This document shows, piece after piece, positions 1 through 366 of a stretch of DNA of 366 nucleotides; the stretch's first letter is position 1, and each line of letters starts with the position of its first letter. Under the pieces are notes generated by a model. That model was not told where the DNA came from. It searched no databases and saw nothing but the letters and a program-made list of their open reading frames with translations. The position numbers and the translations under genes were made by a program. The stretch is from Escherichia coli (GTDB lineage: Bacteria; Pseudomonadota; Gammaproteobacteria; Enterobacterales; Enterobacteriaceae), in the NCBI RefSeq assembly GCF_003334305.1, contig NZ_QOWS01000082.1; one strand, 5' to 3'.

Positions 1-62
1 AATTTGAGAGACTCACGAACAACTTTCGTTGTTCAGTGTTTCAATTTTCAGCTTGATCCAGA

Positions 63-75
63 TTTTTAAAGAGCA
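63..75 (-). promoter_or_regulatory. boxA-like antitermination motif of the rrn spacer (NusB/NusE binding-site type)
   Basis: Minus-strand sequence TGCTCTTTAAAAA (reverse complement of plus 63-75) differs at one position from the rrn leader boxA TGCTCTTTAACAA. It sits just downstream (in the transcript) of a hairpin, giving the boxB-then-boxA order typical of rrn and lambda nut antiterminators. Functional assignment rests on established knowledge of E. coli rrn operons. Confidence 0.7.
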
Positions 76-76
76 A

Positions 77-114
77 ATATCTCAAACATCACCCGAAGAT
101 GAGTTTTGAGATAT
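77..114 (-). promoter_or_regulatory. boxB-like RNA hairpin upstream of boxA in the spacer transcript
   Basis: Minus-strand RNA ATATCTCAAAACTCATC-UUCG-GGTGATGTTTGAGATAT folds into a 17-position stem capped by a UUCG tetraloop. It has one G-U wobble and a 2-nt internal mismatch (C-U, A-G), with 14 Watson-Crick pairs. Pairing was checked by hand. The boxB role is inferred from its position next to boxA. Confidence 0.5.
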
Positions 115-148
115 TAAGGCAGGTGACTTTCACTCACAAACCAGCAAG

Positions 149-224
149 TGGCGTCCCCTAGGGGATTCGAACCCCTGTTACCGCCGTGAAAGGGCGGTGT
201 CCTGGGCCTCTAGACGAAGGGGAC
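149..224 (-). tRNA. tRNA-Glu (anticodon UUC), complete 76 nt with encoded 3' CCA
   Basis: Reverse complement of 149-224 is GTCCCCTTCGTCTAGAGGCCCAGGACACCGCCCTTTCACGGCGGTAACAGGGGTTCGAATCCCCTAGGGGACGCCA. It has a 7-bp acceptor stem (GTCCCCT/AGGGGAC), anticodon loop CUUUCAC with anticodon UUC, T-arm GGTTCGAATCC and terminal CCA. This is identical to E. coli tRNA-Glu as I recall it. In E. coli the spacer copies are gltT/U/V/W; which copy this is cannot be determined from the window, so the symbol is left empty. Confidence 0.97.
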
Positions 225-309
225 GTATCAGTCTGCTTCGCAAGACGCCTTGCTTTTCACTTTCTATCAGACAATCTGTGTGAGCACTTCAAAGAACGCT
301 TCTTTAAGG
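225..309 (-). other. 16S-23S internal transcribed spacer, segment between the 16S 3' end and tRNA-Glu (85 nt)
   Basis: Lies between the mature 16S 3' end (310) and the tRNA 5' end (224) on the same strand. Minus-strand sequence begins CCTTAAAGAAGCGTTCTTTGAAGTGCTCACACAGATTGTCTGATAGAAAG..., which resembles enterobacterial spacer sequence as I recall it. Contains no ORF and is part of the pre-rRNA transcript. Confidence 0.9.
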
Positions 310-366
310 TAAGGAGGTGATCCAACCGCAGGTTCCCCTACGGTTACCTTGTTACGACTTCACCCC
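310..366 (-). rRNA. rrs: 16S ribosomal RNA, 3'-terminal 57 nt (partial; gene continues beyond the right edge of the window)
   Basis: Reverse complement of 310-366 reads GGGGTGAAGTCGTAACAAGGTAACCGTAGGGGAACCTGCGGTTGGATCACCTCCTTA, the canonical 3' end of bacterial 16S rRNA including the anti-Shine-Dalgarno CCUCC and terminal UUA. Match to the E. coli 16S terminus is from memory, not a database search. Confidence 0.96.

Follow-up and report, generated by a model that had tools for sequence, protein, structure and literature searches.

The heterogeneity of the spacers in the rrn operons of Escherichia coli is long established. In operons of the Ile/Ala type (rrnA, rrnD and rrnH) the 16S rRNA gene is followed by the genes for tRNA-Ile(GAU) and tRNA-Ala(UGC), and in those of the Glu type, of which four are expected per genome, by the gene for tRNA-Glu(UUC). 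Within the Glu type, two lengths of the 16S-to-tRNA-Glu spacer are annotated in K-12 strain MG1655: 171 nt in rrnB and in rrnG versus 85 nt in rrnC and in rrnE. Alignment of the K-12 operons shows that the first ~65 nt, through GCAAGGCGT, are common to both forms, after which the short form continues with a 20-nt tail and the long form with 106 nt. Harvey, Hill, Squires & Squires 1988 (J Bacteriol 170:1235) is the reference for a 'ribosomal spacer loop' to which the insert of the 171-nt spacers presumably corresponds. This loop is reportedly a 106-nt sequence which replaces 20 nt, in agreement with the insert measured here.

The DNA analysed in this work, hereafter called the window, is a stretch of 366 nt from E. 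coli that contains a spacer of the short form. Taken together, the evidence makes it very probable that window positions 225-309 represent the majority, ancestral-type allele of the transcribed 16S-to-tRNA-Glu spacer, that the long form is derived, and that the variants are mobile between operons by gene conversion. As such, the spacer of the window is an ordinary, already described feature.

Organization of the window

On its minus strand the window comprises, in this order, the 3' end of the 16S rRNA gene, the spacer, the gene for tRNA-Glu(UUC) and the first part of the tRNA–23S spacer (Table 1). The gap from the 16S rRNA gene to that for tRNA-Glu, as bounded by ARAGORN and Rfam, measures 85 nt exactly. 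Its sequence in the direction of transcription is CCTTAAAGAAGCGTTCTTTGAAGTGCTCACACAGATTGTCTGATAGAAAGTGAAAAGCAAGGCGTCTTGCGAAGCAGACTGATAC, followed directly by GTCCCCTTCG of the tRNA; in the reverse complement of the window, accordingly, ...AAGCAAGGCGTCTTGCGAAGCAGACTGATAC is the end of the spacer and the tRNA begins immediately after it. In genomes with the sequence of the window, RefSeq annotates an identical gap of 85 nt. Many E. coli chromosomes match the whole 366 nt at 100%, and the matched features are annotated as 16S rRNA and tRNA-Glu. The initial annotation had described an 85-nt spacer at this place, with its sequence quoted directly before tRNA-Glu; coordinates and sequence both proved correct.

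The spacer has the properties of the short form of the E. coli Glu type. It directly joins the 16S 3' end (...CCTCCTTA) to tRNA-Glu(UUC), and within its 85 nt the short tail follows GCAAGGCGT; the 44-nt junction matches at 100% in most genomes. ARAGORN found tRNA-Glu as the sole tRNA of the window, which is not the arrangement of an Ile/Ala-type spacer. Likewise, the 106-nt segment TTACGCGTTGGGAG...AATTTTCGT that precedes the tRNA in the long form is absent from the window in the alignment.

Table 1. Features of the 366-nt window, with the evidence for each.
Feature	Position	Strand	Evidence
3' end of the 16S rRNA gene, last 57 nt, ending ...GGATCACCTCCTTA	310..366	-	Rfam SSU_rRNA_bacteria, model positions 1477-1533 of 1533, E 9e-16; 16S annotation in identical genomes
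16S-to-tRNA-Glu transcribed spacer, short form, 85 nt	225..309	-	bounded by ARAGORN tRNA and Rfam SSU calls
Polymorphic spacer nt 15 (T in window; A in K-12 rrnB/rrnG and in ATCC 8739 rrnB/rrnE)	295	-	alignments
Polymorphic spacer nt 21 (A in window; C in K-12 rrnC/E/G; T in K-12 rrnB), predicted bulge in stem	289	-	alignments; unpaired in co-fold
Spacer nt 6-47, predicted 3' strand of the 16S processing stem, pairing with 16S leader -89 to -131	263..304	-	co-fold with leader of identical operon
Small predicted hairpin GCAAG-GCGU-CUUGC (spacer nt 57-70), 3' arm within the short-form tail	240..253	-	centroid structure
Short-form-specific 20-nt tail CTTGCGAAGCAGACTGATAC (spacer nt 66-85), end part of the tRNA-Glu 5' leader	225..244	-	alignment with K-12 rrnB and rrnG
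tRNA-Glu(UUC) gene including CCA	149..224	-	ARAGORN; Rfam tRNA, 60.1 bits at 152-224; same sequence in all operons compared
First 148 nt of the 193-nt tRNA-Glu-to-23S spacer	1..148	-	alignment with K-12

Comparison with the Glu-type operons of K-12

The closest described counterparts in K-12 are the spacers between 16S and gltV or gltU in rrnE and rrnC, in which the Glu-type 16S–23S spacer has a total length of 354 nt. The window resembles them in length, tail and tRNA, and its tRNA–23S part is identical across the 148 nt available. Within the 85 nt, a single base differs from rrnE (window position 289, A versus C) and two differ from rrnC. The long spacers of rrnB and rrnG have the tRNA and the first ~65 nt, including the strand of the RNase III stem, in common with the window but differ by 106 nt in place of the 20-nt tail. 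The statement of the initial annotation that some Glu-type operons have a considerably longer 16S–tRNA spacer is borne out in K-12. Just after the tRNA, the long-form operons of K-12 show linked differences (GTCGCCGACC versus GTCACCTGCC); this linkage is broken in other strains.

Two peculiarities of K-12 operons were seen in passing. First, the tRNA–23S spacer of rrnG measures 184 nt instead of 193 nt; one of its hairpins is swapped wholesale (ACAGACTGTTAAGTCTTGT versus ACTCATCTTCGGGTGATGT), and 9 nt are deleted near its 23S end (alignment columns ~350-372 and 461-476); rrnG of the other strains examined has the common 193-nt form. Second, the assembly of strain MC4100 (NZ_HG738867; 4049000-4060000 and 2600000-2635000) contains the hybrid operons clpB-rrn-murB and murI-rrn-kgtP, both with 171-nt spacers, which correspond to an inversion of ~1.4 Mb between rrnG and rrnB.

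Frequency of the two spacer forms in E. coli

Population counts were made in 5,426 complete E. coli genomes with the 44-nt short junction and the 106-nt long insert as probes. The short junction was present at 17,556 places in 5,366 genomes (median of three per genome); the insert occupied 4,008 places, spread over 2,791 genomes (median of one per genome; none on plasmids in this count). Both forms together amount to 3.97 copies per genome, i.e. close to the four expected, and essentially all Glu-type operons are therefore accounted for. The short form makes up ~81% of the Glu-type copies, and 2,635 of the genomes (49%) lack a long copy. The exact 85-nt allele of the window was the best match in 1,427 of 5,398 records. 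These values update an old observation.

In an evenly spaced sample of 60 insert-bearing genomes, 42 had one copy of the insert, 13 had two, four had three and one had seven. The seven places belong to strain C10 (NZ_CP010132.1). This count is probably a repeat-collapse artefact of the assembly, because seven long Glu-type copies would leave no Ile/Ala-type spacers and those tRNA genes are located only in rrn operons. Strain Santai has six short junctions.

Distribution of the variants over rrn operons

The initial annotation had proposed that the spacer length could identify the rrn copy. In K-12 it does so in part, as a short spacer narrows the choice to rrnC and rrnE. The proposal did not hold in other strains, in which the long copy is located in rrnG or rrnB or is absent. 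The single long copy is in rrnG (flanked by clpB and kgtP) in strains TKEC21-17 and ECONIH5 and in rrnB (flanked by murI and murB) in HS30-1. In ATCC 8739, rrnG is long and rrnB, rrnC and rrnE are short. The exact 366-nt window was found in rrnC (ATCC 8739 and AMSCJX02), in rrnE (WCHEC020031 and 05-3629) and in rrnG (strain 120899). The same annotation had considered that all Glu-type operons might have the same 85-nt spacer and that length would then be uninformative. This applies to about half of the complete E. coli genomes and is false in the other half, to which ATCC 8739 with its exact match to the window belongs.

Accordingly, the two lengths are unlikely to serve as stable tags, short for rrnC and rrnE and long for rrnB and rrnG, by which the window could be assigned to a copy. 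Such an assignment is valid within K-12 MG1655. In favour of the rule is also that in ATCC 8739 the window corresponds only to rrnC, with an identical 85-nt spacer, and rrnB and rrnE differ from it at six sites. The short rrnB of that same strain, the changing location of single long copies, the 2,635 genomes devoid of them and the occurrence of the exact window in three different operons of five strains argue against the rule, and across strains it is largely refuted.

The variable sites of 15 operons were compared in order to describe how the differences are combined. The two 5' haplotypes (nt 15/21 = T/A or A/T) occur together with short and with long tails in all four combinations, and the sites just after the tRNA also assort independently. 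Such a four-gamete pattern points to recombination among operons. Conversion between rrn operons of E. coli has been measured (PMC8022953), and exchange of whole spacer regions between them was shown earlier according to the citation given there (Harvey and Hill 1990, as cited in PMC8022953). We infer that gene conversion is the mechanism that moves the variants from operon to operon. It would transfer the tail cassette and the neighbouring SNPs independently of each other, so that neither length nor exact sequence would be bound to a single operon of the chromosome. Since the variants change operons, the length of a 16S–23S spacer, and even its exact sequence, cannot assign a short read or a window to one rrn operon across E. 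coli strains. Beyond such bookkeeping the importance of the observation is small.

Predicted processing stem and RNA structure

The 5' leader of a pre-tRNA is removed by RNase P at the 5' end of the tRNA. For the upstream part of the spacer, the window spacer was co-folded with the 16S leader, 200 nt long, from an operon of the same sequence as the window. In the predicted structure the 5' part of the spacer is complementary to the leader, as befits an RNase III processing stem, and the pairs include +31:-115 and +33:-117. This pairing agrees with the published extensions of the 17S precursor, in which the 5' end is longer by 115 nt and the 3' end by 33 nt, with both ends in a long helix (PMC3996153). 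The RNase III cut described there, after spacer nt 33, corresponds to window position 277. The bulge predicted at nt 21 coincides with a site that varies between A, C and T across genera, too.

With cleavage sites taken from the literature, the following course of processing can be proposed. The spacer would be transcribed within the rRNA precursor, and its first ~47 nt would pair with the 16S leader to form a stem that RNase III cuts 33 nt beyond the mature 16S end. Spacer nt 34-85 would then constitute the 5' leader of pre-tRNA-Glu and be removed by a cut of RNase P at the first base of the tRNA. The two forms diverge from nt 66 onwards, beyond the RNase III stem, and the exchange of 20 nt for 106 nt would thus lie wholly inside the discarded leader, downstream of that stem.

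Downstream of the stem the hairpin of nt 57-70 follows, and another 15 nt separate it from the tRNA. The distal part of the short form, hairpin included, had a fold energy no better than that of shuffled sequences (z = -0.25). The whole 85 nt folded alone gave z = +0.62, as expected for a strand whose pairing partner lies elsewhere. For the long insert two hairpin domains are predicted, with a fold better than that of shuffled sequences (z = -2.8); on the strength of this prediction the insert could have a role of its own.

Possible function of the length difference

A site resembling a sigma-70 promoter was found neither in the short nor in the long form. Each form has one terminator-like hairpin in antisense orientation, which is within chance expectation, and a promoter or terminator difference between the forms was rejected on these grounds. 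In the window the antisense site is at 240-253 on the plus strand, where the spacer hairpin is followed by the T-run TTTTCACTTT; one such site was found versus 0.3 expected in shuffles, and it is probably due to chance. The antisense terminator-like site of the long form differs from that of the short form.

Both lengths are probably tolerated because the difference lies in leader RNA that is discarded, and the difference would then be neutral. The alternative, i.e. that the two lengths differ in processing kinetics, in output of tRNA-Glu or in an internal promoter and are kept by selection, appears improbable. It could appeal to the predicted structure of the long insert, to the fact that about half of the genomes keep at least one long copy, and to published claims of internal rrn promoters, among them a weak one in the 16S–23S spacer of rrnB (PMC5179076). 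Against these points stand the lack of sigma-70-like promoter sites in either form and of any Rfam family on the insert at E ≤ 1. Moreover, the other half of the genomes live without the long form, and copy number and position of the latter vary freely.

The spacer in other Enterobacterales and the origin of the long form

One genome per bacterial species was scanned for the anchor CACAGATTGTCTGA followed, after 10-25 nt, by the anchor GCAAGGCGT, both of which are common to the two E. coli forms. Both anchors had to be intact, and Salmonella, Klebsiella and the other Escherichia species are not among the loci obtained, so that a long form may exist outside E. coli. Fifty of the 51 loci were in rrn context, in genera including Enterobacter, Citrobacter, Kluyvera, Cedecea, Leclercia, Phytobacter, Rosenbergiella, Mixta, Pantoea and Mangrovibacter. 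All 50 have a tail of 18-20 nt, and at loci whose contig includes the 16S end the spacer measures 83-86 nt. The long form was not found at any of these 50 loci of the two-anchor scan.

The spacers of the other Enterobacterales (Enterobacter, Citrobacter, Kluyvera, Leclercia and others) resemble that of the window in the stem core CACAGATTGTCTGA, the hairpin GCAAGGCGTCTTGC and the AGACT motif. They differ from it in the middle of the tail, which is mostly GATTGAGACT versus GAAGCAGACT in the window, and in the final 3-5 nt preceding the tRNA. Within the short tail, the AGACT motif is invariant across genera. The 3' arm of the hairpin, CTTGC, was outside the search pattern and is nevertheless the same in all 50 rrn matches from other genera, which leaves no covariation to test. 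Invariance of hairpin and motif hints at a constraint beyond that on a passive linker.

Two loci came from records with non-enterobacterial names, 'Chryseobacterium sp. 18061' (CACSKA010000057.1) and 'MAG: Oxalobacter sp.' (JAHAYL010000010.1). Both contain enterobacterial Glu-type rrn spacers, the latter with exactly the short tail of E. coli, and they are likely to reflect contamination or mis-binning.

Since all Glu-type spacers obtained from other genera of the Enterobacterales are short, these sequences are most simply read as follows: the short form, shared within the Enterobacterales, is the conserved state, and the long form is derived from it by insertion. The latter would then be an insertion allele which segregates within E. 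coli. The insert itself contains a diverged version of the short tail at offsets 7-26, with 15 of 20 matches to the Dryocola-type tail, a value reached by one of 5,000 shuffles. Compared with E. coli's own short tail, this segment had 11 of 20 matches, which is no better than chance. A sensitive search for the extra 81 nt of the insert elsewhere in E. coli gave no location beyond the 4,008 places, in 2,791 genomes, counted above. Origin from a mobile element was considered and discarded, as no copy outside rrn operons was detected in E. coli at the sensitivity set for distant matches and none in phage records. The plasmid collection yielded only one match to the insert, in the 1.41-Mb E. coli record CP061244.1, which is presumably a split or engineered chromosome and not a plasmid.

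The opposite polarity, with the 171-nt form as the ancestral one and the 85-nt form arising by loss of the extra sequence, is very unlikely. That a single operon can turn from long to short is suggested by the title of Harvey et al. 1988, according to which the spacer loop sequence was reportedly lost from rrnB in a K-12 subline. In two relA1 K-12 strains for which this title implies a short rrnB, the operon in question is long (the murI-side operon of MC4100 and rrnB of DH10B), the two strains being of shared lineage and relA being unlinked to rrnB. A loss at one operon is better accounted for by conversion with a short operon as the donor. The uniformly short spacers of the other genera, the recognisable diverged short tail that the long form holds in addition to its extra sequence, and the confinement of the extra 81 nt to these places in E. 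coli all speak for an insertion.

There is hardly any probability that the 52-nt piece between the cuts of RNase III (nt 33) and RNase P is more than debris, for example a processing or folding signal for pre-tRNA-Glu or a small regulatory RNA with altered activity in the long allele, as might be argued because the hairpin GCAAG-GCGU-CUUGC and the AGACU motif are invariant across Enterobacterales genera.

Features of the tRNA-Glu-to-23S spacer

Two further elements were noted on the minus strand beyond the tRNA. At 63-75 the window contains the boxA-like sequence TGCTCTTTAAAAA, which we take to be boxA and which is one base off the boxA of the leader, TGCTCTTTAACAA. Positions 1-71 match the Rfam family StyR-44 (RF01830) with 81.5 bits, the match being cut by the window end; in K-12 rrnB it is full-length and scores 122.9 bits. 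As the spacer contains the boxA-like TGCTCTTTAAAAA, the 'gene' defined by this family extends into the part of the rrn transcript that serves as 23S leader and antitermination region.
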